Source: Escherichia coli
GTDB lineage: Bacteria; Pseudomonadota; Gammaproteobacteria; Enterobacterales; Enterobacteriaceae
Reading direction: 5' to 3' (one strand)
Length of the DNA stretch: 64,000 nt
Assembly: GCF_024223415.1 (NCBI RefSeq)
Contig: NZ_CP100500.1
Numbering within the stretch: the stretch's first letter is position 1; each line of letters begins with the position of its first letter. Positions 1-60,036 of the stretch are shown here, piece by piece. The notes beneath the pieces are model-generated. The model was not told where the DNA came from. It did no database searches and was given only the letters and a program-made list of their open reading frames with translations. Both the position numbers and the translations under genes were made by a program.

Positions 1-5563
<5,563 letters not shown>

Positions 5564-37019: not shown

Positions 37020-37352
37020 GTTTTGTAACCTGTTGTTAATTACTTCCAATCTCACCGCTTGGGGCATGGATGGGGCAAACTCACTCAATTTCTGGTTTAA
37101 AATGGATACCTGATCCTGAAAGTTTTCTGCCATCCACGATCCGTAAACGCGATAACATGTTTTGTCTTCGCTTTGCTCATAGGAAGAGTGAACTCTTTTG
37201 TTAGCCTGGGGTTCCTTCTGATCATTATTGTTCCTGCCTTTATCTCTTGCCACGCCAGAGCCCCCTGGATACACATACACCAGGATGAAAACGGTGAGTT
37301 GTGTTCAAACTGTAGTACAATTCTCTCCAGTATGAACAGGAAAGAATATGCT

Positions 37353-37685
37353 ATGAACCCTTATATTTATCTTGGTGGCGCAATACTTGCAGAGGTCATT
37401 GGTACAACCTTAATGAAGTTTTCAGAGGGGTTTACACGGTTATGGCCCTCTGTTGGCACAATTATTTGCTATTGTGCATCATTTTGGTTATTAGCTCAGA
37501 CACTGGCTTATATACCTACAGGGATTGCTTATGCTATCTGGTCAGGAGTCGGTATCGTTCTGATTAGTTTGCTTTCCTGGGGATTTTTTGGCCAACGACT
37601 GGACTTGCCAGCCATCATAGGCATGATGTTGATTTGTGCCGGTGTGTTAGTCATTAACTTGTTGTCACGAAGCGCACCGCATTAA
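37353..37685 (+). CDS. emrE: SMR-family multidrug efflux transporter EmrE (110 aa)
   Basis: MNPYIYLGGAILAEVIGTTLMKFSEGFTRLWPSVGTIICYCASFWLLAQTLAYIPTGIAYAIWSGVGIVLISLLSWGFFGQRLDLPAIIGMMLICAGVLVINLLSRSAPH; conserved Glu14. Confidence 0.9.
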   Translation: MNPYIYLGGAILAEVIGTTLMKFSEGFTRLWPSVGTIICYCASFWLLAQTLAYIPTGIAYAIWSGVGIVLISLLSWGFFGQRLDLPAIIGMMLICAGVLVINLLSRSAPH

Positions 37686-37853
37686 AAAATAATCATCCTT
37701 GAGATAACAGGAATCTGATTTGTGCATATTATGGCTAATGTTCGGGGCAACTTTATAATTATGATTGCATTTGCGCGATCATTGCGCCTTTTTGCATAAT
37801 GAGATCAATGCACATCAAATAAAATAACGATAGGTCACAACAAAGAGGTTTTT

Positions 37854-38405
37854 ATGAAAAAACTTATCGTTTCAAGTGTATTGGCATTCATAACATTTTC
37901 TGCGCAGGCCGCAGCATTTCAGGTCACTAGTAATGAAATAAAAACAGGAGAGCAACTTACAACGTCTCATGTATTTTCTGGATTTGGGTGTGAGGGGGGT
38001 AATACATCGCCCTCATTAACCTGGTCTGGTGCTCCAGAAGGCACCAAAAGCTTTGCCGTAACTGTGTATGATCCAGATGCGCCTACAGGCAGCGGATGGT
38101 GGCACTGGACTGTTGCTAATATTCCAGCAACGGTAACATATTTGCCCGCTGATGCAGGAAGACGTGATGGTACAAAACTTCCGACTGGTGCTGTCCAAGG
38201 CCGAAATGATTTTGGTTATGCGGGATTTGGTGGAGCATGTCCTCCCAAAGGAGATAAACCCCATCATTACCAGTTTAAAATATGGGCTCTAAAAACTGAT
38301 AAGATTCCTGTGGATTCTAATTCCAGCGGAGCGTTAGTTGGTTATATGCTTAATGCCAATAAAATTGCAACCGCTGAGATAATACCCGTTTATGAGGTAA
38401 AGTAG
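37854..38405 (+). CDS. ybcL: Secreted PEBP-family (Raf kinase inhibitor-like) protein YbcL (183 aa)
   Basis: Signal peptide MKKLIVSSVLAFITFSAQAAAF, PEBP motifs (YDPDAP, HHYQFKIWAL). Confidence 0.85.
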   Translation: MKKLIVSSVLAFITFSAQAAAFQVTSNEIKTGEQLTTSHVFSGFGCEGGNTSPSLTWSGAPEGTKSFAVTVYDPDAPTGSGWWHWTVANIPATVTYLPADAGRRDGTKLPTGAVQGRNDFGYAGFGGACPPKGDKPHHYQFKIWALKTDKIPVDSNSSGALVGYMLNANKIATAEIIPVYEVK

Positions 38406-38414
38406 GATAAGAGT

Positions 38415-39212
38415 ATGCTGGCAAAAGATAGGACTAACCTAAAGATTGAAGAAATACGGATGCATAAACATCATGAGATTCACAGGGTTAAGCCTCTTAT
38501 GCCAGCTTTATGTCGTATCCGTCAGGGAAAAAAAATTATCAATTGGGAGACGCATAGTCTAACTGTTGATAATAATCAGATAATATTATTTCCCTGTGGA
38601 TATGAATTTTATATTGCGAATTACCCAGAAGCAGGTCTTTATCTTGCAGAAATGCTTTATTATCCCATTGATCTAATTGAAAAGTTCCAAAATCTTTATG
38701 CGATAACCGATCAAATTCGTAACACGACAGGTTTCTGCTTACCTCAGAATCCCGAGTTAATATATTGTTGGGAGCAACTAAAAACATCTATTTCCCGAGG
38801 CTTCTCAACGCAAATTCAGGAACACTTAGCAATGGGCGTTCTACTTTCATTAGGAGCACATCATGTTAATTGTTTACTTTTATCAGATAGTAAACAATCA
38901 TTAATAAGTCGTTGTTATAACCTAATGCTATCCGAACCTGGAACAAAATGGACAGCAAACAAGGTAGCGAGATATCTCTACATTTCTGTTTCCACATTGC
39001 ATCGCCGTCTGGCAAGCGAGGGAGTAAGTTTTCAAAGTATATTGGACGACGTGAGGTTAAATAATGCGTTGTCTGCTATACAAACGACAGTAAAACCCAT
39101 CAGCGAGATTGCCAGGGAAAATGGTTACAAGTGTCCTTCTCGTTTTACTGAAAGGTTCCATAATCGTTTTAAGATAACACCAAGAGAGCTAAGAAAAGCG
39201 TCCAGAGAGTAA
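38415..39212 (+). CDS. ybcM: AraC/XylS-family transcriptional regulator YbcM (265 aa)
   Basis: C-terminal AraC HTH ([47 protein letters not shown]...[20 protein letters not shown]). Confidence 0.85.
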
Positions 39213-39503
39213 AAGTATTTTATGAAGGAGCAACAGCATAGATTTTTATTTTGGAAAATAAATACGGCATACTCAACCTATTGGAGCCTGAACAATCCGG
39301 TGACTTCTGCGCTAATCGGGGACGTTTATAAGCACATATAATTGATACTATCTTCCTCCATCACAATTTCAGAAATGCACGTGTGATTTTTTTGCATCCG
39401 GCGTTTGGACTATGTGGAGTTCAAGAGTGGGAAAGTTACAAGAGGTTGAGGGGATAATTAAAGGGATGCTTATGACATTAGATATCCGGATAGGTACGGA
39501 TAT

Positions 39504-39543
39504 CGTTGTTATTAAATCTAGTTCGTTGTTATTAAATCTAGTT
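39504..39543. repeat. Perfect 2-copy tandem direct repeat of a 20-bp unit (CGTTGTTATTAAATCTAGTT)
   Basis: Two adjacent identical 20-mers inside AT-rich non-coding DNA. Confidence 0.9.
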
Positions 39544-40175
39544 TATACGTTAAGATGCAGCTACAGCAGAAATTGCCACTGTTAATTTTTTCATCGTGAG
39601 CCTTTTATTTGAACTATTATTTAAAAATGATGTCACTGCACTACAAATATTCATCCAATCAATGAGATTATTTCAAGATGTAAGTTTTAGTTTCTCATTT
39701 AAATTGTGAAGTAGATCCCTATCTTTATCTGAACTGTTTCTATTGCACACAATGCATGACTATTTTGTGAACGAATATAAATTTGGTAGTTAAATTATAT
39801 TAAAGGTTGTTATTTATGATTGACTCATAATTTATTTATTTAATTTAAATAGCCTAGAAATAACCATGGAAATTATTTGCATGATGTTTGTTTAGATTTA
39901 TTAATGTAATTGAGGTGGTTTTATTTAATACGCAATATAGCGCCGCTTGATATTAGTTCTATTTTTTTTGCGTAAGATAGATGAGACAAACTGAGACGCA
40001 TAATGGTTTGCAAGGCTCTAATACTTTGATGTTGAGGATGTGATGGGGCATGTACGGGGCATAGTACAATGATGTCCATGCTGGTGTAGATAATCTCCAG
40101 GCTTATCCGGTGCGCCGTAAAACCCCGTCCTTCAGGGCAGGGATATAAGGCGTGGTTTTCCACCTGACCAGGTGT

Positions 40176-40595
40176 TTGCTGTTGTTCAATGTATTGGCGG
40201 ATGACGGATATTGGCGCACCTCCGCAGCTACTGGCAAAATAGCCAGGACTCCACAAAACGCCTTTGTAGTAATACCTGACTGCAATATCTGGTCGATCTC
40301 GTCGCAGTCACCTACCCGATACGCCTTTGAGGCTGTTTACCAGACTGGATATCGCCAGTTTGGGAGGATAGTTAATTAACAAATGGACGTGATCTGGTTC
40401 GCCATCCATTTCAACCAGTTCAGCTTCAAAATCAGCACATACATTTGAAAAGTAAGTGCGTAGTTTTTCTGTCGCGTCATGGTCAAAAATCTGACGTCGG
40501 TATCTGGTGACAAAGACCAGGTGAACATGCATCAGGAAAACACAATGCCTTCCACGCCGGATATCGGTTTCTTTTTTCACAGACCAAAGTATCAT
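40176..40595 (-). pseudogene. tnpA: tnpA (HUH Y1 transposase of IS200/IS605 family) interrupted by an in-frame TGA
   Basis: N-part MILWSVKKETDIRRGRHCVFLMHVHLVFVTRYRR...EPDHVHLL (HUH motif) ends at TGA 40308..40310; same frame continues LRRDRPDIAVRYYYKGVLWSPGYFASSCGGAPISVIRQYIEQQ (catalytic Tyr region). Confidence 0.75.
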
Positions 40596-40602
40596 TTGGC
40601 CT

Positions 40603-41811
40603 GTGAAACGACTACAAGCATTTAAATTCCAGTTAAGACCCGGTGGTCAACAGGAGCGTGAAATGAGGCGCTTCGCAGGCGCATGTCGTTTCGTTTTCAA
40701 TCGTGCTCTGGCACGTCAGAATGAGAATCATGAGGTCGGTAATAAATACATCCCTTACGGGAAAATGGCTTCCTGGCTGGTTGAGTGGAAAAATGCCACT
40801 GAAACGCAATGGCTTAAAGATGCCCCGTCACAGCCATTGCAACAGTCACTGAAAGACCTTGAGCGGGCTTACAAAAACTTCTTCCAGAATCGGGCTGCTT
40901 TTCCCCGATTCAAAAAGCGGGGACAGAATGATGTATTCCGCTACCCGCAGGGCGTTAAGCTCGATCAGGAAAACAGCCGTATTTTTCTGCCGAAACTGGG
41001 CTGGATGCGCTACCGGAACAGCCGTCAGGTCACGGGTGTTGTGAAAAATGTCACTGTCAGCCAGTCCTGCGGTAAGTGGTACATCAGTATTCAGACAGAA
41101 AGTGAAGTATCAACTCCGGTTCACCCTTCAGCATCAATGGTCGGGCTGGATGCTGGCGTGGCTAAACTCGCCACGCTGTCAGATGGCACAGTCTTTGAGC
41201 CTGTAAACAGTTTTCAGAAAAACCAGAAGAAGCTGGCGAGACTTCAGCGACAGTTAAGCCGCAAGGTCAAATTCAGCAACAACTGGCAGAAGCAGAAACG
41301 CAAAATACAGCGACTGCATTCCTGTATCGCAAATATCCGCAGGGACTACCTTCACAAAGTCACAACGACCGTCAGCAAAAACCACGCAATGATAGTCATT
41401 GAGGATTTGAAGGTCAGCAACATGTCAAAGTCAGCAGCGGGTACGGTCAGCCAGCCGGGGCGCAATGTCCGGGCAAAATCAGGTTTAAACCGTTCGATAC
41501 TGGATCAGGGCTGGTATGAAATGCGCCGCCAGCTTGAGTACAAGCAGCTCTGGCGTGGCGGTCAGGTGCTTGCTGTTCCGCCAGCGTACACAAGCCAGCG
41601 TTGCGCGTGCTGTGGTCATACAGAGAAAGAAAACCGCCTGTCACAAAGTAAATTCAGATGCCAGGTATGTGGATATACAGCGAACGCCGATGTAAATGGC
41701 GCTCGTAACATTTTAGCGGCGGGGCACGCCGTTCTTGCCTGTGGAGAGATGGTGCAGTCAGGCCGCCCGTTGAAGCAGGAACCCACCGAAATGATTCAGG
41801 CGACAGCCTGA
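40603..41811 (+). CDS. tnpB: TnpB (IS605 OrfB family RNA-guided endonuclease), apparently intact, 402 aa
   Basis: RuvC-I ([12 protein letters not shown]), RuvC-II ([11 protein letters not shown]), zinc finger CACCGH...CQVCG, RuvC-III ([10 protein letters not shown]). Confidence 0.85.
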
Positions 41812-41850
41812 ACGTAGCAGGGATCCTCGTCCTTCAGGGCGTGGAGGATG

Positions 41851-42522
41851 TCAACAAACAGGTTGAATTAACTCCGCGCCCTGGTTTTTGACATTACCTA
41901 CCGCGCGCGATACCGGGTGCCAGGTGAACTGGTTTGCTGGCACACAGCCGTTGGTAGCAATTTCTGATGCTTCTTTACCGCCAATCTCTTGCCGCATCCA
42001 TTCCTGTGCAGCTTCTGGCGACAGAACCAGCGGGCGGCGGTCATGAATATCTACCAGACCCTGGTCTGCTGCTGCAGTGACAATTAAAAATCCTTCGGCT
42101 TCGTCACCGCGCTCAAACGGTGTGCTACCTATCGCGGCCATAAAAACAGGTTGTCCATCAGCGCGATAGATAAAATAAGGCTGTTTTTTGTCGCCTTCTT
42201 TTTTCCACTCAAACCAGCCATCGGCAAAACAGATTGCCCGACCATGTTGCCAGAGCGGTTTAAACATACGACTGGTGGCCGCAGTTTCTACGCGGGCGTT
42301 AATCAGCGGCGGTTTATCCCACCATCCGGGAGCATATCCCCAGAAAACCGGATCCAGATGAAGGTGTTCATCACGTTCACTGAGCAGAAGAACTTTGGTT
42401 CCCGGCGCGACGTTGTATCTGCCAATGGGTTCGGGATCGTAGGGAATATCGCGTTCAATATCTTCCGCGAGAAGCGCAAGGTAATCTTCACGCGTTTGGG
42501 ATTGGGCAAAGCGTCCACACAT
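41851..42522 (-). CDS. yedK: SRAP-family abasic-site processing protein YedK (223 aa)
   Basis: MCGRFAQSQTREDYLALLAEDIERDIPYDPEPIGRYNVAPGTKV..., N-terminal Cys2 nucleophile. Confidence 0.9.
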   Translation of the reverse strand: MCGRFAQSQTREDYLALLAEDIERDIPYDPEPIGRYNVAPGTKVLLLSERDEHLHLDPVFWGYAPGWWDKPPLINARVETAATSRMFKPLWQHGRAICFADGWFEWKKEGDKKQPYFIYRADGQPVFMAAIGSTPFERGDEAEGFLIVTAAADQGLVDIHDRRPLVLSPEAAQEWMRQEIGGKEASEIATNGCVPANQFTWHPVSRAVGNVKNQGAELIQPVC

Positions 42523-46628: not shown

Positions 46629-47038
46629 CAGACTGGGTCCTGAATCAAAGAAGGGGAGAGTAACGACTCTTTCCAGGCATCGGCAATATTACGCATTAAT
46701 GCTTCCACTTCTTCGACTGCGGAGACATCGTTGCGTAAATTGGCTTGCAGCAAGCGCCTGACCATATAGCTATAAAGAGCAATCAAGTTTTGGGTTAATT
46801 CGTCTTTGCTCTCTTCATCAAGACTCACCCGCAGTCCGTTCTCAATGATGTTGATCGCTTTTGACAAAGAGACGCCTTTGCCTTGCTGATTGTTGTCCTG
46901 CATAAACAGGCGCGCTCTAACCAGTGCGCTCAGCACTCCATCAAATAGCATGGTGACCAGCTGCTGCTGGCTGGCGCTCATTACGGCGCTTTCGACGCCA
47001 ATTTGTGCATAGGCTTTTGAGCCGCTCGCGGTATACAT
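46628..47038 (-). CDS. fliS: Flagellin-specific chaperone FliS (136 aa)
   Basis: [50 protein letters not shown]... Confidence 0.9.
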
Positions 47039-47052
47039 GCTGACCTCCGTGA

Positions 47053-48465
47053 TCAGGAATTACTCATTGCAGTAAATTGTTGGCTGAGATAGGTACTGGT
47101 GTTATTCAGTTTGCTCATCATGGTATCTAATTGCGTAAACTGTGCAGTGTAACGCGCCACGGTGTCATCAATGCTGGCACTGACGGATAGATACTGTTTG
47201 GTTAGTTTTTTCAGTGTGGCGTTAATACTGTCCTGTGCGCTATCAATAATGCCATCATCGGCAAGGTAACCTTTTACCTCGGTGGCAATTTTGGTGGTAA
47301 TTCCTGTTTCTTTACCATCGCCTACCAGCAATTCACGTACGGATGCTGTATTTTCATTCAGGACTTTTTTGAGTTTATCATCATCAATTTTCAGCTTACC
47401 CGTCGTGCCGTCCTGCTTAATCCCGATCTCGTTTAATGTTTTGAAGGCACCGTCGCTGGCACCGTTTGCAAATTGTGCGCGGATGCCGCTTTGAATTGTA
47501 CGTACAACGCTGTCTCCGAGAAGTGCACCATTATTTTTATCTTGTGCTTCAGCACCTGGGTCTACTTCTTTATATTTTGTCAGGGTGTTAAAGGTGTCAA
47601 TGAGGGAGTTATATGAATCCACCCAGCCTTTAATTGCTTCGGTTGCTTTATCGTTGCTTTTTGTCACAGTGACCCGGACGTCAGTGACTTTTTTGGTCAA
47701 ATCGAGAGTCACTCCCTGAGGAGCATCGGTAATTTTGTTACTTGAACGTTCAATATCGATACCGTTAACGTTTAGCTGTGCATTTTGCGCGTTAACCAGT
47801 TCCTTCATATTCCCGGTGTTGGTCTTGCTGTCATAAGCCAGCAGATCATTTAATTTACTGTCACCCTCAACAGATATGGTCATTTTATTGGCCAGACCTT
47901 CACTGGCGGTCAATACCAATTGATAGTCACCATCTTTGACTTTAACGATACTAGCGGAAATTCCACTATCGGCATCGTTAATGGTTTTGCTGATCTCATC
48001 CAATGACGTCTGATCTTTATTGAGCTTGATTTCCAGCGGCTCTTTACGGCCGTCTTGGGTAATTTTTATTGTGCGTGTATCTGATGACTCATCACCCAGT
48101 GCATCTTTTGTTGATGCAATGATTGTCGGGGAATCAGTTCGTAAAGATTGCGCCTGCGCCAGTTGGGTTACGCTGATGGTATAGATACCGGGGGCAGCAC
48201 CTGCTTCGGTGGAAACTTTAAGGTCTTCATTGCTACTGGTAACGGTAGTGCTTTTGAACAGATCGGCTTTATTTAACGCAGTATTTGCAGTCTGGAATTT
48301 TTCTAATGCACTTTTTAATGTGCCATAGGCTGTCAGACGTGCGGTGTTGTCACTCTGTTGCTGAGTAATTGGGTTTAAGCGTTTTTTTTCAGCGATGGTC
48401 AGGTTGTTTAGCAATGTATCCAGCGGCAGATTCGAACCAACGCCAAGAGATGTAAATGAAGCCAT
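47053..48465 (-). CDS. fliD: Flagellar filament cap protein FliD (470 aa; strain-variable allele)
   Basis: MASFTSLGVGSNLPLDTLLNNLTIAEKKRLNPITQQQSDNTARLTAYGTLKSALEKFQTAN...; SD AAGGAA upstream. Confidence 0.85.
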   Translation of the reverse strand: MASFTSLGVGSNLPLDTLLNNLTIAEKKRLNPITQQQSDNTARLTAYGTLKSALEKFQTANTALNKADLFKSTTVTSSNEDLKVSTEAGAAPGIYTISVTQLAQAQSLRTDSPTIIASTKDALGDESSDTRTIKITQDGRKEPLEIKLNKDQTSLDEISKTINDADSGISASIVKVKDGDYQLVLTASEGLANKMTISVEGDSKLNDLLAYDSKTNTGNMKELVNAQNAQLNVNGIDIERSSNKITDAPQGVTLDLTKKVTDVRVTVTKSNDKATEAIKGWVDSYNSLIDTFNTLTKYKEVDPGAEAQDKNNGALLGDSVVRTIQSGIRAQFANGASDGAFKTLNEIGIKQDGTTGKLKIDDDKLKKVLNENTASVRELLVGDGKETGITTKIATEVKGYLADDGIIDSAQDSINATLKKLTKQYLSVSASIDDTVARYTAQFTQLDTMMSKLNNTSTYLSQQFTAMSNS

Positions 48466-48503
48466 ACCTAATTCCTTTTGATTGCAAACAGTAGATAAGC
48501 GGG

Positions 48504-48530
48504 TTATCGGCAATTTGTGCGCAAAGTTTA
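48504..48530 (-). promoter_or_regulatory. Sigma-28 (FliA) class 3 promoter of fliD
   Basis: Minus strand reads TAAA-N15-GCCGATAA, matching the sigma-28 consensus. Confidence 0.7.
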
Positions 48531-48623
48531 ATAGTTGATTCACGAAGATGATGCGCAGAGTAGAGTTGTATATTACGGATATTTCAGCCGTTAAGAAAAA
48601 ACAGGAGAGAAACTAAAATTTTC

Positions 48624-48650
48624 TAAAGTTCGAAATTCAGGTGCCGATAC
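48624..48650 (+). promoter_or_regulatory. Sigma-28 (FliA) class 3 promoter of fliC
   Basis: TAAAGTTCGAAATTCAGGTGCCGATAC: TAAA-N15-GCCGATAC. Confidence 0.75.
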
Positions 48651-48719
48651 AAGGGGTACGGTGAGAAACCGTGGGCAACAGCCCAATAACATCAAGTTGT
48701 AATTGATAAGGAAAAGATC

Positions 48720-50180
48720 ATGGCACAAGTCATTAATACAAACAGCCTGTCGCTGTTGACCCAGAATAACCTGAACAAATCTCAGTCTTCTCTTGGCTCT
48801 GCTATTGAGCGTCTCTCTTCTGGCCTGCGTATTAACAGTGCTAAAGATGACGCAGCAGGTCAGGCGATTGCTAACCGTTTTACGGCAAATATTAAAGGTC
48901 TGACTCAGGCTTCCCGTAACGCGAATGATGGTATTTCTGTTGCGCAGACTACTGAAGGTGCGCTGAATGAAATTAACAACAACCTGCAGCGTGTACGTGA
49001 ACTGACTGTTCAGGCAACTAACGGTACTAACTCTGACAGCGATCTTTCTTCTATTCAGGCAGAAATTACTCAACGTCTGGAAGAAATTGACCGTGTATCT
49101 GAGCAAACTCAGTTTAACGGCGTGAAAGTCCTTGCCGAAAATAATGAAATGAAAATTCAGGTTGGTGCTAATGATGGGGAAACCATCACTATCAATCTGG
49201 CAAAAATTGATGCGAAAACTCTCGGCCTGGACGGCTTTAATATCGATGGCGCGCAGAAAGCAACTGGCAGTGACCTGATTTCTAAATTTAAAGCGACAGG
49301 TACTGATAATTATCAAATTAACGGTACTGATAACTATACTGTTAATGTAGATAGTGGAGCAGTTCAAAATGAGGATGGTGACGCAATTTTTGTTAGCGCT
49401 ACCGATGGTTCTCTGACTACTAAGAGTGATACAAAAGTCGGTGGTACAGGTATTGATGCGACTGGGCTTGCAAAAGCCGCAGTTTCTTTAGCTAAAGATG
49501 CCTCAATTAAATACCAAGGTATTACTTTCACCAACAAAGGCACTGGTGCATTTGATGGCAGTGGTAACGGCACTCTAACCGCTAATATTGATGGCAAAGA
49601 TGTAACCTTTACTATTGATGCGACAGGGAAGGACGCAACATTAAAAACGTCTGATCCTGTTTACAAAAATAGTGCAGGTCAGTTCACTACAACTAAGGTT
49701 GAAAACAAAGCCGCTACAGCATCGGATCTGGACTTAAATAACGCTAAAAAAGTGGGTAGTTCTTTAGTTGTAAATGGCGCTGATTATGAAGTTAGCGCTG
49801 ATGGTAAGACAGTAACTGGGCTTGGTAAAACTATGTATCTGAGCAAATCAGAAGGTGGTAGCCCGATTCTGGTAAAAGAAGATGCAGCAAAATCGTTGCA
49901 ATCTACTACCAACCCGCTCGAAACCATCGACAAGGCATTGGCTAAAGTTGACAATCTGCGTTCTGACCTCGGTGCAGTACAAAACCGTTTCGACTCTGCT
50001 ATCACCAACCTTGGCAACACCGTAAACAACCTGTCTTCTGCCCGTAGCCGTATCGAAGATGCTGACTACGCGACCGAAGTGTCTAACATGTCTCGTGCGC
50101 AGATCCTGCAACAAGCGGGTACCTCTGTTCTGGCGCAGGCTAACCAGACCACGCAGAACGTACTGTCTCTGCTGCGTTAA
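48720..50180 (+). CDS. fliC: Flagellin FliC (486 aa; non-K-12 H-antigen allele)
   Basis: MAQVINTNSLSLLTQNNLNKSQSSLGSAIERLSSGLRINSAKDDAAGQAIANRF...SRIEDADYATEVSNMSRAQILQQAGTSVLAQANQTTQNVLSLLR. Confidence 0.95.
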   Translation: MAQVINTNSLSLLTQNNLNKSQSSLGSAIERLSSGLRINSAKDDAAGQAIANRFTANIKGLTQASRNANDGISVAQTTEGALNEINNNLQRVRELTVQATNGTNSDSDLSSIQAEITQRLEEIDRVSEQTQFNGVKVLAENNEMKIQVGANDGETITINLAKIDAKTLGLDGFNIDGAQKATGSDLISKFKATGTDNYQINGTDNYTVNVDSGAVQNEDGDAIFVSATDGSLTTKSDTKVGGTGIDATGLAKAAVSLAKDASIKYQGITFTNKGTGAFDGSGNGTLTANIDGKDVTFTIDATGKDATLKTSDPVYKNSAGQFTTTKVENKAATASDLDLNNAKKVGSSLVVNGADYEVSADGKTVTGLGKTMYLSKSEGGSPILVKEDAAKSLQSTTNPLETIDKALAKVDNLRSDLGAVQNRFDSAITNLGNTVNNLSSARSRIEDADYATEVSNMSRAQILQQAGTSVLAQANQTTQNVLSLLR

Positions 50181-50196
50181 TTTACACTTATCGCTC

Positions 50197-50222
50197 AAAC
50201 CCCGCCAACGGCGGGGTTTTTT
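50197..50222 (+). terminator. Intrinsic terminator of fliC
   Basis: AAACCCCGCCAACGGCGGGGTTTTTT. Confidence 0.85.
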
Positions 50223-54323: not shown

Positions 54324-55072
54324 GTGCCATTGAAGTTAAGAACCTGGTGAAAAAATTTCACGGTCAGACGGTGCTGCACGGTATCGACCTTGAGGTAAAG
54401 CCTGGCGAAGTGGTGGCAATTATCGGTCCGAGTGGTTCCGGCAAAACCACGTTGCTACGCAGCATAAATCTGCTGGAACAACCCGAAGCGGGAACGATCA
54501 CCGTTGGCGATATCACTATTGATACTGCACGTTCATTAAGTCAGCAAAAATCGCTGATTCGCCAGTTGCGTCAGCACGTCGGGTTTGTCTTCCAGAACTT
54601 TAATTTGTTTCCGCATCGTACGGTGCTGGAAAACATTATTGAAGGGCCGGTGATCGTCAAAGGCGAACCGAAAGAAGAGGCCACGGCGCGCGCTCGCGAG
54701 CTGTTGGCGAAAGTTGGGCTGGCCGGTAAAGAAACCAGCTATCCACGTCGTTTGTCTGGCGGTCAACAGCAACGTGTTGCGATTGCACGTGCGCTGGCAA
54801 TGCGTCCTGAGGTGATTTTGTTTGACGAGCCAACGTCGGCGCTGGATCCAGAGCTGGTGGGCGAAGTCCTGAACACCATCCGTCAGCTGGCGCAGGAAAA
54901 GCGCACGATGGTGATTGTGACGCACGAAATGAGCTTTGCCCGGGATGTTGCGGACCGGGCGATCTTTATGGACCAGGGGCGGATAGTCGAGCAGGGGGCC
55001 GCAAAAGCGTTATTTGCCGATCCCGAGCAGCCTCGCACCCGCCAGTTCCTCGAGAAGTTTCTGCTGCAATAA
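54320..55072 (+). CDS. tcyN: L-cystine ABC transporter ATP-binding protein TcyN (250 aa)
   Basis: Walker A GPSGSGKTT, signature LSGGQQQRVAIARAL, Walker B ILFDEPTSALD. Confidence 0.9.
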   Translation: MSAIEVKNLVKKFHGQTVLHGIDLEVKPGEVVAIIGPSGSGKTTLLRSINLLEQPEAGTITVGDITIDTARSLSQQKSLIRQLRQHVGFVFQNFNLFPHRTVLENIIEGPVIVKGEPKEEATARARELLAKVGLAGKETSYPRRLSGGQQQRVAIARALAMRPEVILFDEPTSALDPELVGEVLNTIRQLAQEKRTMVIVTHEMSFARDVADRAIFMDQGRIVEQGAAKALFADPEQPRTRQFLEKFLLQ

Positions 55073-55301
55073 TAAGAAAAAATCAGCCCCGACGATTCAC
55101 CTGTCGGGGCTGGACGCCATTTCAAGCCTGATAAAACTGCTTAACAAATCAGCATAACTCATTAATAACATAAGAGAATGCGATGGCTTGCAAAAGTAAT
55201 TCATTGCCTGAATAATATAAATTATATATAAATCTTATTTATGTGATAGTTTGAATTATCATTATAAATGATACTCACTCTCAGGGGCGTTGCGGTTTAC
55301 T

Positions 55302-56024
55302 ATGCAGGATAAGGATTTTTTCAGCTGGCGTCGCACGATGCTGTTGCGTTTTCAGAGGATGGAGGCCGCAGAAGAGGTCTACCATGAAATAGAGTTTCAG
55401 GCTCAGCAGCTGGAGTACGATTACTATTCGTTATGTGTTCGCCACCCGGTACCATTCACGCGACCTAAAGTGGCTTTCTACACCAATTACCCTGAGGCGT
55501 GGGTTAGTTATTATCAGGCAAAAAACTTTCTCGCAATTGATCCGGTGCTGAACCCTGAAAACTTTAGTCAGGGCCATTTAATGTGGAATGATGACTTATT
55601 CAGCGAAGCACAGCCGTTATGGGAAGCCGCGCGCGCACATGGTTTACGCCGCGGTGTCACTCAGTATTTAATGCTGCCAAACCGGGCGCTGGGCTTTTTG
55701 TCCTTTTCCCGTAGCAGCGCGCGCGAAATACCCATTCTTAGTGATGAACTGCAATTAAAAATGCAGTTACTGGTGCGCGAAAGTCTGATGGCTCTGATGC
55801 GTTTAAATGATGAAATAGTGATGACGCCAGAGATGAATTTCAGCAAGCGCGAAAAAGAAATTTTGAAATGGACGGCGGAAGGGAAGACATCAGCAGAGAT
55901 AGCGATGATTTTGTCAATCTCTGAGAATACGGTCAATTTCCATCAGAAAAACATGCAGAAAAAAATCAATGCACCAAATAAGACCCAGGTTGCCTGTTAC
56001 GCGGCCGCTACTGGCTTAATTTGA
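55302..56024 (+). CDS. sdiA: LuxR-family quorum-sensing regulator SdiA (240 aa)
   Basis: MQDKDFFSWRRTMLLRFQRMEAAEEVYHEIEFQAQQLEYDYYSLCVRHPVPFTRPKVAFYTNYPEAWVSYYQAKNFLAIDPVL... Confidence 0.95.
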   Translation: MQDKDFFSWRRTMLLRFQRMEAAEEVYHEIEFQAQQLEYDYYSLCVRHPVPFTRPKVAFYTNYPEAWVSYYQAKNFLAIDPVLNPENFSQGHLMWNDDLFSEAQPLWEAARAHGLRRGVTQYLMLPNRALGFLSFSRSSAREIPILSDELQLKMQLLVRESLMALMRLNDEIVMTPEMNFSKREKEILKWTAEGKTSAEIAMILSISENTVNFHQKNMQKKINAPNKTQVACYAAATGLI

Positions 56025-56051
56025 TCGCTTTTCTTTCTGCGTGCCAGATGC

Positions 56052-56088
56052 AAAAACCGGCTGAAAGGCACGCTATCAGCCGGTTTTA
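56052..56088. terminator. Bidirectional terminator between convergent sdiA and yecF
   Basis: AAAAACCGGCTGA...TCAGCCGGTTTTAT. Confidence 0.7.
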
Positions 56089-56090
56089 TA

Positions 56091-56315
56091 TTACTGACGG
56101 TAGGCTTGTTTAATTTGCTTAACCGTTTTGGAAAATACTGCAGCCTGGGTTTCGTCTTCGATCAGCGCAAGCTGTTTTTCCATCTTTAACATCACGCGGC
56201 CCGCGTCAGCTTGTCCCATCGCCTGTAGCATCAGCGTCAGCATCGCTTTCAGGCAGGAGACTTCATTTGCCAGTTCTTGATTATTCTCGGCAGTAGAAAA
56301 ATCAGGCGTACTCAT
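56091..56315 (-). CDS. yecF: YecF (DUF2594 small protein, 74 aa)
   Basis: [74 protein letters not shown]. Confidence 0.85.
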
Positions 56316-56456
56316 TTATTTTCCTCGTCATGTTGCAATGAAAATTTGCGGTGAAAAATGTTAAGGCGGCGGAGTATACCATAAGCTTTGCTAAAAATAG
56401 CAGTGGTTGTTTTTTGAGCGTGATATCGGCAGTGCTATAAAATACGTTAATATAAT

Positions 56457-56465
56457 GACCAATTA
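56457..56465. repeat. IS1 target-site duplication (left copy, GACCAATTA)
   Basis: Identical 9-mer directly flanks both IS1 ends. Confidence 0.9.
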
Positions 56466-56480
56466 GGTAATGACTCCAAC

Positions 56481-56984
56481 TTACTGATAGTGTTTTATGT
56501 TCAGATAATGCCCGATGACCTTGTCATGCAGCTCCACCGATTTTGAGAACGACAGTGACTTCCGTCCCAGCCTTGCCAGATGTTGTCTCAGATTCAGATT
56601 ATGTCGCTCAATGCGCTGAGTGTAACGCTTGCTGATAACGTGCAGCTTTCCCTTCAGGCGTGATTCATACAGCGGCCAGCCATCCGTCATCCATACCACG
56701 ACCTCAAAGGCCGACAGCAGGCTCAGAAGACGCTCCAGTGTGGCCAGAGTGCGTTCACCGAAGACGTGCGCCACAACCGTCCTCCGTATCCTGTCATACG
56801 CGTAAAACAGCCAGCGCTGACGTGATTTAGCACCGACGTAGCCCCACTGTTCGTCCATTTCAGCGCAGACAATCACATCACTGCCCGGTTGTATGCGCGA
56901 GGTTACCGACTGCGGCCTGAGTTTTTTAAGTGACGTAAAACCGTGTTGAGGCCAACGCCCATAATGCGTGCACTGGCGCGACAT
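56481..56984 (-). CDS. insB: IS1 InsB (transposase frame, normally expressed as InsAB' by -1 frameshift)
   Basis: ...[52 protein letters not shown]...[18 protein letters not shown]. Confidence 0.9.
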
Positions 56985-57178
56985 CCGACGCCATTCATGG
57001 CCATATCAATGATTTTCTGGTGCGTACCGGGCTGAGAGGCGGTGTAAGTGAACTGTAGTTGCCATGTTTTACGGCAATGAGAGCAGAGATAGCGCTGATG
57101 TCCGGCAGTGCTTTTGCCGTTACGCACCACGCCTTCAGTAGCGGAGCAGGAAGGACATCTGATGGAAATGGAAGCCAC
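56903..57178 (-). CDS. insA: IS1 InsA (91 aa)
   Basis: [91 protein letters not shown]. Confidence 0.95.
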
Positions 57179-57233
57179 GCAAGCACCTTAAAATCACCAT
57201 CATACACTAAATCAGTAAGTTGGCAGCATTACC

Positions 57234-57242
57234 GACCAATTA
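57234..57242. repeat. IS1 target-site duplication (right copy, GACCAATTA)
   Basis: Identical to 56457..56465. Confidence 0.9.
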
Positions 57243-57550
57243 ATATTTTTATCATGAATGTTTTTTGCCCGTATTGTTCGGGTTAATTAATGTTACATAT
57301 TCAGCGGGCTGATTTTCATTTTTGCTGAATAAAGTCAATTTTTGTCACATTTCATCGTAGGGCTTACTGTGAAACGATCCGGTAAGCCGTTGGTGACGGG
57401 CGTGACCATAACTGTGGACAATCGAATTGACAAAAACGAGAGAAAAATCGAATACCCACCATTTTTAACGTTTCAAAGTTGCAATAAAAACCGCTAATAT
57501 ACGAATGACTAACTATCAGTAGCGTTATCCCTATTTCTGGAGATATTCCT

Positions 57551-58207
57551 TTGATCAACGTTCTACTTGTTGATGACCACGAACTGGTGCGCGCAGGGAT
57601 ACGACGCATTCTGGAAGATATAAAGGGTATAAAAGTCGTCGGTGAGGCATCGTGCGGTGAAGACGCCGTTAAGTGGTGCCGGACAAATGCCGTTGACGTG
57701 GTGCTAATGGACATGAGTATGCCGGGCATTGGCGGTCTTGAGGCGACGCGTAAAATCGCGCGTTCCACAGCTGATGTCAAAATCATCATGCTTACCGTCC
57801 ATACAGAAAACCCTTTACCAGCGAAAGTCATGCAGGCCGGTGCTGCGGGCTACCTCAGCAAAGGCGCGGCTCCGCAGGAAGTCGTGAGTGCGATTCGTTC
57901 TGTCTATTCAGGGCAGCGTTACATTGCTTCTGACATCGCTCAACAAATGGCGTTAAGCCAGATCGAACCAGAAAAAACAGAAAGCCCATTTGCCAGTTTG
58001 TCTGAACGTGAATTGCAGATTATGCTGATGATCACCAAGGGCCAGAAGGTCAATGAGATCTCAGAACAGCTCAATCTCAGTCCGAAAACGGTGAACAGCT
58101 ACCGCTATCGTATGTTCAGTAAACTAAACATTCATGGCGATGTTGAGCTGACTCACCTGGCAATTCGCCATGGTCTGTGTAATGCGGAGACATTATCAAG
58201 TCAGTGA
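57551..58207 (+). CDS. uvrY: Response regulator UvrY (218 aa)
   Basis: [44 protein letters not shown]..., LuxR-type HTH. Confidence 0.95.
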
Positions 58208-60036
58208 GTGATCAGTTTGACGCAAAAGCGTTTTTAAAAACCGTAACCAGCCAGCCAGGCGTTTATCGCATGTACGATGCTGGTGGTACGGTTATCTATG
58301 TCGGCAAAGCGAAAGACCTGAAAAAACGGCTTTCCAGCTATTTCCGTAGCAACCTCGCTTCGCGCAAAACCGAAGCGCTGGTCGCCCAGATCCAGCAAAT
58401 TGATGTAACGGTTACTCATACAGAAACCGAAGCGCTGTTGCTGGAACACAACTACATCAAACTCTATCAGCCGCGTTACAACGTTTTGCTACGCGATGAT
58501 AAATCTTATCCTTTTATCTTCCTGAGTGGCGATACCCACCCGCGTCTGGCGATGCATCGTGGTGCGAAGCATGCCAAAGGTGAATATTTCGGCCCGTTCC
58601 CGAATGGCTATGCCGTACGTGAAACACTGGCGCTACTGCAAAAGATTTTCCCCATTCGCCAGTGCGAAAATAGTGTTTATCGCAATCGCTCGCGTCCGTG
58701 TCTGCAATATCAGATAGGGCGCTGTCTGGGACCGTGCGTTGAAGGACTGGTGAGTGAAGAAGAATACGCTCAGCAGGTCGAGTATGTGCGCCTGTTTTTG
58801 TCTGGCAAAGATGATCAGGTGCTTACGCAACTCATTAGTCGTATGGAAACTGCCAGCCAGAATCTGGAGTTTGAAGAAGCGGCACGTATTCGCGACCAAA
58901 TTCAGGCGGTGCGACGCGTCACCGAAAAACAGTTTGTTTCCAATACCGGCGACGACCTTGACGTTATTGGTGTGGCGTTCGATGCGGGCATGGCTTGTGT
59001 CCACGTATTGTTCATTCGTCAGGGCAAAGTGCTCGGCAGCCGCAGCTATTTCCCGAAAGTGCCTGGCGGTACGGAACTGAGCGAGGTGGTAGAAACCTTC
59101 GTAGGTCAGTTCTATTTACAAGGCAGCCAGATGCGCACCTTACCGGGTGAGATCCTGCTCGATTTTAATCTTAGCGATAAAACGCTGCTCGCCGATTCCC
59201 TTTCAGAACTGGCGGGACGCAAGATTAATGTTCAAACCAAACCTCGCGGCGATAGGGCGCGTTATCTGAAACTCGCGCGCACCAATGCGGCGACGGCCTT
59301 AACCAGCAAACTTTCGCAGCAATCTACCGTTCACCAGCGACTGACCGCGCTTGCCAGCGTGTTGAAATTGCCGGAAGTGAAGCGGATGGAGTGCTTTGAC
59401 ATCAGCCATACCATGGGCGAACAAACCGTCGCTTCCTGTGTGGTGTTTGATGCTAACGGCCCGCTGCGTGCGGAGTATCGGCGCTATAACATTACAGGCA
59501 TCACGCCGGGCGATGATTATGCGGCGATGAATCAGGTGCTGCGTCGGCGTTATGGTAAAGCCATTGACGACAGTAAGATCCCGGATGTGATCCTTATCGA
59601 CGGCGGCAAAGGCCAGCTTGCGCAGGCGAAAAATGTCTTCGCCGAACTGGATGTCTCATGGGATAAAAATCATCCGCTGCTACTTGGCGTTGCCAAAGGA
59701 GCAGATCGTAAGGCTGGACTGGAAACGCTGTTCTTTGAGCCGGAAGGTGAGGGATTTAGTTTGCCGCCAGATTCACCCGCGCTGCATGTTATCCAGCATA
59801 TTCGCGATGAATCACATGATCACGCGATTGGCGGGCACCGTAAAAAACGGGCGAAGGTCAAAAATACCAGTTCCCTGGAAACCATTGAAGGCGTCGGGCC
59901 AAAACGTCGGCAAATGTTGTTGAAATATATGGGCGGTTTGCAAGGTTTACGTAACGCCAGCGTCGAGGAAATTGCAAAAGTGCCGGGTATTTCGCAAGGT
60001 CTGGCAGAAAAGATCTTCTGGTCGTTGAAACATTGA
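58204..60036 (+). CDS. uvrC: Excinuclease ABC subunit C UvrC (610 aa, GTG start overlapping uvrY stop)
   Basis: [47 protein letters not shown] (GIY-YIG domain). Confidence 0.95.

Follow-up and report, generated by a model that had tools for sequence, protein, structure and literature searches.

The insertion sequence at 56466..57233 of the 64-kb window (the whole stretch of Escherichia coli DNA analysed here) is, with high probability, the product of a recent and simple transposition of IS1 into the AT-rich 5' end of yecU, a small gene lying between uvrY and yecF, and the insertion is likely neutral or nearly so. The insertion site is new, and the kind of event is already known, i.e., an ordinary IS1 insertion.

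The element is a complete IS1 of the IS1F type, which occupies the minus strand and carries its transposase genes pointing leftwards, to yecF. Members of the IS1 family measure ~768 bp and end in inverted repeats of ~23 bp starting GGT(A/G)ATG; the window element is 768 bp in length and is bounded by imperfect inverted repeats of ~23 bp, the right one (IRR, insB end) located at 56466..56488 and the left one (IRL, insA end) at 57211..57233, which pair with each other over 23 nt (87% complementary). The reading frames follow the arrangement of the family as well: insA (56903..57178, minus strand; 91 codons with a GTG start) is open and is followed, in the -1 frame relative to it, by an open insB reading frame (56481..56984, minus strand), while the programmed -1 frameshift motif TTAAAAAAC (the A6C slippery motif) is located at 56921..56929 on the same strand. 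Computed translation with a -1 shift at TTAAAAAAC yields the fusion product InsAB' of 232 aa without interruption. For insA, matches to the NCBIfam IS1/IS1595 zinc-binding domain and transpos_IS1 models were obtained, the latter (NF033558, cut-off 100) scoring 147.9 bits on the InsB part and 89 bits on InsA. A candidate promoter of the element itself (CTGCCA, 16-nt spacer, TATGAT) is found in IRL at 57226..57199, reading on the minus strand. The open reading frames together with the intact ends suggest that the element is competent for transposition.

With respect to isoform, the element is nearly identical to IS1F of K-12 (99.35%, with 5 of the 768 positions differing) and displays 91.15% identity to IS1A. 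The IS1F copy of K-12 MG1655 (4518472..4519239) has the same 768 bp, inverted repeats and insA/insB layout, but occupies a different chromosomal site, and its insB7 carries a pseudogene annotation, in contrast to the open InsAB' frame of the window element. Many E. coli genomes carry IS1 copies which are 100% identical to the window copy over all 768 bp; therefore, the element has not diverged since its insertion. It is the sole IS1 copy within the window.

A direct-repeat search recovered the 9-mer GACCAATTA as a perfect repeat on both sides of the element, the left copy at 56457..56465 and the right copy at 57234..57242 (a chance match of a 9-mer being 4^-9 = 3.8e-6). The inverted repeats, insA/insB and this target-site duplication (TSD) bear out the initial annotation, which had described a complete 768-bp IS1 with a perfect 9-bp duplication at this position. 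Direct duplications generated by IS1 are typically 9 bp, sometimes 8 bp, in length; here, GACCAATTA occurs twice at the IS1 and only once in the empty allele of the assembly GCA_021454005.1, which aligns to the window, with the IS1 and a single TSD copy taken out, at 100.000% identity over 6,177 bp. By alignment, the locus of GCA_021454005.1 represents the exact pre-insertion state of the window; another close relative, compared over 8.7 kb, differs at just 5 sites. Staggered cleavage of the target followed by gap repair would have produced the duplication of the 9-bp GACCAATTA. Since IS1 is a multi-copy repeat which often breaks or confuses assemblies, misplacement of an IS1 copy by the assembler was considered; however, such misplacement would not give rise to an exact 9-bp duplication when the empty allele holds the target just once, and an artefact of this type is extremely improbable.

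Both TSD copies hold a T which was matched in none of 5,365 complete E. coli genomes (searched with a reconstructed 81-mer). This rare SNP, which results in the substitution F5L in YecU, falls within the duplicated 9-mer and is also present in the GCA_021454005.1 allele. A mutation tied to the insertion was considered as its origin and rejected, as the F5L allele is found uninterrupted on 112 contigs (on which the identical protein is annotated as YecU) and in the assembly that is identical over 6,177 bp. Judged from these alleles, the T is a lineage SNP older than the insertion and was duplicated along with the target.

The distribution of the insertion is equally narrow. Neither IS1 junction was found at the same site in any of 5,426 complete RefSeq E. 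coli genomes, and the exact junction strings had no match in GTDB representative genomes or in JGI metagenomes, while the reconstructed 500-bp empty site is continuous in 5,360 complete E. coli genomes. The lone one-piece junction match, from strain YPE10, was set aside, since it represents a different IS1 variant, which lies 21 bp from the window site and has a separate TSD. The initial annotation had considered the insertion relatively recent, had described K-12 MG1655 as lacking IS1 at this site, and had proposed comparison with IS-free strains, stating that the same IS1 and duplication in reference strains would contradict recency. Comparison with K-12 confirmed the absence, the empty site is present in K-12, GCA_021454005.1 and the 5,360 complete genomes mentioned above, and none of the 5,426 complete genomes carries this IS1 with this duplication. 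The alternative, an ancestral insertion of old date that became fixed in a lineage, has nothing in its favour except the presence of the element and is extremely improbable in view of the missing junction in all 5,426 genomes, the perfect TSD, the identity of the IS1 to copies elsewhere, and an empty site in an assembly with zero differences across the 6,177-bp flank. Because an exact empty allele exists, the TSD is perfect and the IS1 is undiverged, the compared sequences establish that the insertion is recent and strain-specific, an intact IS1 having moved by simple transposition at a lineage tip.

The target of this transposition is a gene which the initial annotation missed, i.e., yecU. 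K-12 annotation places yecU (b4752, 58 aa) between uvrY and yecF, with its 3' end overlapping the yecF start by 14 nt; yecU has been described as a new small protein (PMC6001520), and YecU orthologues give matches to Pfam PF23680. Removal of the IS1 and one TSD copy from the window brings back a 58-aa YecU ORF, distinguished from K-12 YecU by F5L and located upstream of yecF with the same 14-nt overlap with the yecF start; with the IS1 present, the gene is split. The IS1 site corresponds to codon 7/8 of yecU. The 5' stump of the gene (57229..57255, minus strand; ATG at 57255) encodes MIKILIGR and comprises seven native codons, one junction-spanning hybrid codon (Arg) and a stop located in IRL, i.e., 8 codons. 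The 3' part (codons 5-58; 56302..56465, minus strand), with codons 5-7 falling inside the left TSD copy, is severed from the start codon. As read from the sequence, yecU is certainly disrupted, the gene being cut to 8 codons, which makes the strain a natural knock-out; since the IS1 lies within yecU codons, the event is one of gene disruption and not merely of a promoter region. The initial annotation had placed the insertion in a divergent promoter region, 150 bp upstream of yecF and 318 bp upstream of uvrY. These distances are correct within 1 bp (150 nt to the yecF ATG at 56315, minus strand, and 317 nt to the uvrY TTG at 57551) and the site does lie between yecF and uvrY, but it interrupts yecU after codon 7 and separates yecF from the sequence that drives the overlapping yecU-yecF pair.

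The neighbouring yecF (DUF2594; 56091..56315, minus strand; NCBIfam NF007904, 148.4 bits) is located downstream of the IS1 in the direction of transcription, and the transposase genes, yecU and yecF all read in one direction. A candidate yecU-yecF promoter (TTGTCA, 17-nt spacer, TATGGT), identified by consensus match only, is present at 57405..57433 on the minus strand and constitutes the sole promoter-like match upstream of yecU; the IS1 now parts it from yecF. No experimental transcription start was found for this promoter. IS1 insertions are classically polar. Thus, yecF would be deprived of its native upstream transcription and left depending on read-through from IS1, and its expression is probably reduced, as suggested by this loss of native transcription (through separation from the promoter) and by the polarity of IS1. 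Nevertheless, since yecF retains its own ribosome-binding site (Shine-Dalgarno sequence), read-through from IS1 could still provide some yecF expression. The window strain would therefore offer a natural yecU knock-out, probably with a yecF knock-down as well, in an otherwise wild-type background; pairing with the exact empty-site sister allele could help to assign phenotypes to the uncharacterised YecU and YecF, and the insertion is usable as a strain marker. An Rfam search of 54500-58500 returned no match. In many E. coli genomes, PGAP predicts a 38-aa ORF between yecU and uvrY (57293-57409, minus strand), the label of which varies between 'transcriptional regulator' and 'hypothetical protein'; it is flagged partial in several genomes and, in the window, stops early, after 24 codons. 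This ORF is probably not a real gene.

IS1 prefers AT-rich DNA, and the target region, with a GC content of 35-41%, fits this preference. The insertion is most likely neutral or nearly neutral, rather than a selected regulatory change. A selected loss of function, in which the insertion was favoured for inactivating yecU and/or lowering yecF, was weighed against a set of interruption counts, for which a genome was scored as interrupted when it was matched, with less than 80% of a 500-bp query in one place (interrupted or truncated), irrespective of shared ancestry. On this measure, the stretch comprising part of yecF, yecU and the spacer is interrupted in 14 of the 5,374 genomes matched, as compared to 1 of 5,424 for the uvrC interior, which served as control, and to 8 of 5,375 in the case of the tcyN-sdiA spacer; the uvrY leader and 5' end are interrupted in 48 of 5,420, probably for the most part in laboratory strains of the B lineage. 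Furthermore, yecU carries independent IS1 insertions in two or more further complete genomes, among them YPE10 (56437-44) and Br_190 (56366-74). Although these observations would be expected under selected loss, the low GC content of the stretch could by itself account for repeated hits, the counts ignore shared ancestry, the insertion is confined to a single lineage tip, and both yecU and yecF are genes of uncharacterised function; selected loss is accordingly regarded as quite unlikely. The counts give a hint that the target region is permissive, and perhaps favoured, but they do not establish selection.

On the other side of the insertion, uvrY (57551..58207, plus strand; TTG start) is intact. 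In K-12, the uvrY mRNA starts 1 nt before a 5-codon 5'-terminal uORF, which ends 28 nt ahead of the uvrY start codon (PMC4965119). The same layout was located in the window: the leader (57504..57550, plus strand) has its 5' end at ~57504, ~47 nt before the TTG of uvrY, and carries the uORF ATGACTAACTATCAGTAG at 57505-57522, leaving 28 nt to the start codon. The leader and the first 442 bp of uvrY display 100% identity with many E. coli genomes, and the 5' end of the transcript is ~270 bp away from the IS1 end. As the IS1 lies ~270 bp upstream of the transcription start, the core promoter appears untouched, and the alignments indicate that the coding sequence, leader and core promoter of uvrY are all intact. 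For the same reason, i.e., that the IS1 ends ~270 bp upstream of the transcription start, uvrY expression is probably unchanged or merely mildly altered. The effect on uvrY, uvrC and CsrB/CsrC suggested in the initial annotation is thus unsupported, and a change in the BarA/UvrY-Csr circuit may be regarded as possible but unsupported. The insertion would gain in importance only if the output of UvrY or CsrB/CsrC were altered, the global regulatory Csr circuit being under UvrY control.

The outward-reading promoter invoked in the same annotation has found a concrete candidate, albeit a weak one. An IS1/flank hybrid promoter may be formed at 57220..57249 (plus strand) by TTGGCA in IRL, an 18-nt spacer and TATTTT in the flank, which together match the consensus at 9 of 12 positions; AATATT at a 16-nt spacer provides an alternative -10, and both -10 candidates match at 4 of 6 positions. 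In a simulation that inserted IS1 at each window position in turn, matches of this quality arose at 5.5% of sites overall and at 14% of those that are AT-rich. Hybrid ('fusion') promoters of IS1 were reportedly described by Prentki et al. in 1986. The fusion promoters of IS1 (for example, afaA in ST131) resemble the window candidate in having an outward-pointing -35 within the terminal repeat and a -10-like hexamer 16-18 nt away, but in the window the -10 is weak and the gene is ~300 bp away. It is documented that IS1 can create hybrid promoters, with outcomes ranging from ~7-log2 activation, through no change, to repression (PMC8764528; PMC9330008). Rewiring of uvrY, either through the -35 of IRL and the -10 of the flank or through displacement or disruption of silencing DNA upstream, would alter the expression of uvrY and of the co-transcribed uvrC and shift CsrB/CsrC and CsrA activity. 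The candidate on the uvrY strand and the documented precedents are in line with such an effect, as is a consensus scan, which found no terminator-like site between the candidate and uvrY. Nevertheless, the match is weak and would be expected at 14% of AT-rich sites as well, the native promoter and leader of uvrY are intact ~270 bp off, and the new transcript would have a leader of ~300 nt; rewiring of uvrY is therefore considered unlikely.

The window IS1 has several counterparts in the vicinity. Complete E. coli genomes carry at least seven independent IS1 insertions within the sdiA-yecF-yecU-uvrY locus (window-equivalent 55944-57703). The IS1 of the PCN061 group is inserted in sdiA (window-equivalent 55944-52), those of Br_190 and YPE10 in yecU, that of FDAARGOS_1291/TUM1857 in the uvrY leader (window-equivalent 57516-24), that of 2020N21-246 at the uvrY start codon, and those of N25 and GN03551 inside uvrY. 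All lie within ~1.8 kb, each at a site other than that of the window IS1, and are variants with 90.9-96.1% identity to it; moreover, several of them destroy uvrY or detach its promoter, whereas the window IS1 does neither. Several carriers of IS1 at this locus are human blood or cerebrospinal fluid (CSF) isolates, in which uvrY is inactivated or parted from its promoter. The nearby insertions share the orientation of the window IS1 (8 of 8), in a sample biased by junction queries that joined same-strand pieces only; the shared orientation was rejected as a finding owing to this bias. In 2020N21-246, the first base of the IS1 TSD coincides with base 2 of the TTG that starts uvrY (3278-3295), and the annotation gives a full-length uvrY from a CTG start composed of the last IS1 base and TG.

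These insertions raise the question of whether the sdiA-yecF-yecU-uvrY locus might be a recurrent IS1 target through selected change in the BarA/UvrY-Csr circuit, with the window as a mild case in which a hybrid promoter raises or deregulates uvrY and YecU is lost; such a scenario is very unlikely. A recent, near-neutral insertion into yecU is the preferred reading.

The locus of E. coli B (REL606/BL21) offers a further comparison, as IS1 abuts uvrY in this laboratory reference strain, too, its transposase being oriented relative to uvrY as in the window. In E. coli B, the element is of the IS1A type, ~41 kb and the uvrY N-terminus are deleted and uvrY is a pseudogene, whereas the window carries a simple insertion with a TSD and retains uvrY, sdiA and the fli genes. 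This 41-kb deletion (uvrY..hchA) in E. coli B has been reported as IS1-mediated (PMC3032704). In REL606 (NC_012967.1, 1972696-1974685), the IS1A-type element is located between a uvrY lacking its N-terminus and a truncated hchA. Since the uvrY N-terminus is deleted, strains of the B lineage are natural uvrY mutants.

Beyond the insertion, the window corresponds colinearly to ~1.989-2.037 Mb of K-12 MG1655, read in the opposite orientation, and the flanks of the IS1 show 98.5% (left) and 99.4% (right) identity to K-12. The fliC/fliD region (47014-50200) gave no K-12 alignment at megablast stringency, as expected of a difference in the flagellin (H-antigen) allele. A segment at 37156-41855, which has no K-12 counterpart at this position, encodes an SMR-like membrane protein, a PEBP/YbhB-like protein and an AraC-family regulator. 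An element of the IS200/IS605 type is located in the same segment; it has a TnpB-like ORF of 402 aa (40603..41811, plus strand) and a tnpA-like gene split over two frames (40595..40308 and 40256..39921, minus strand).
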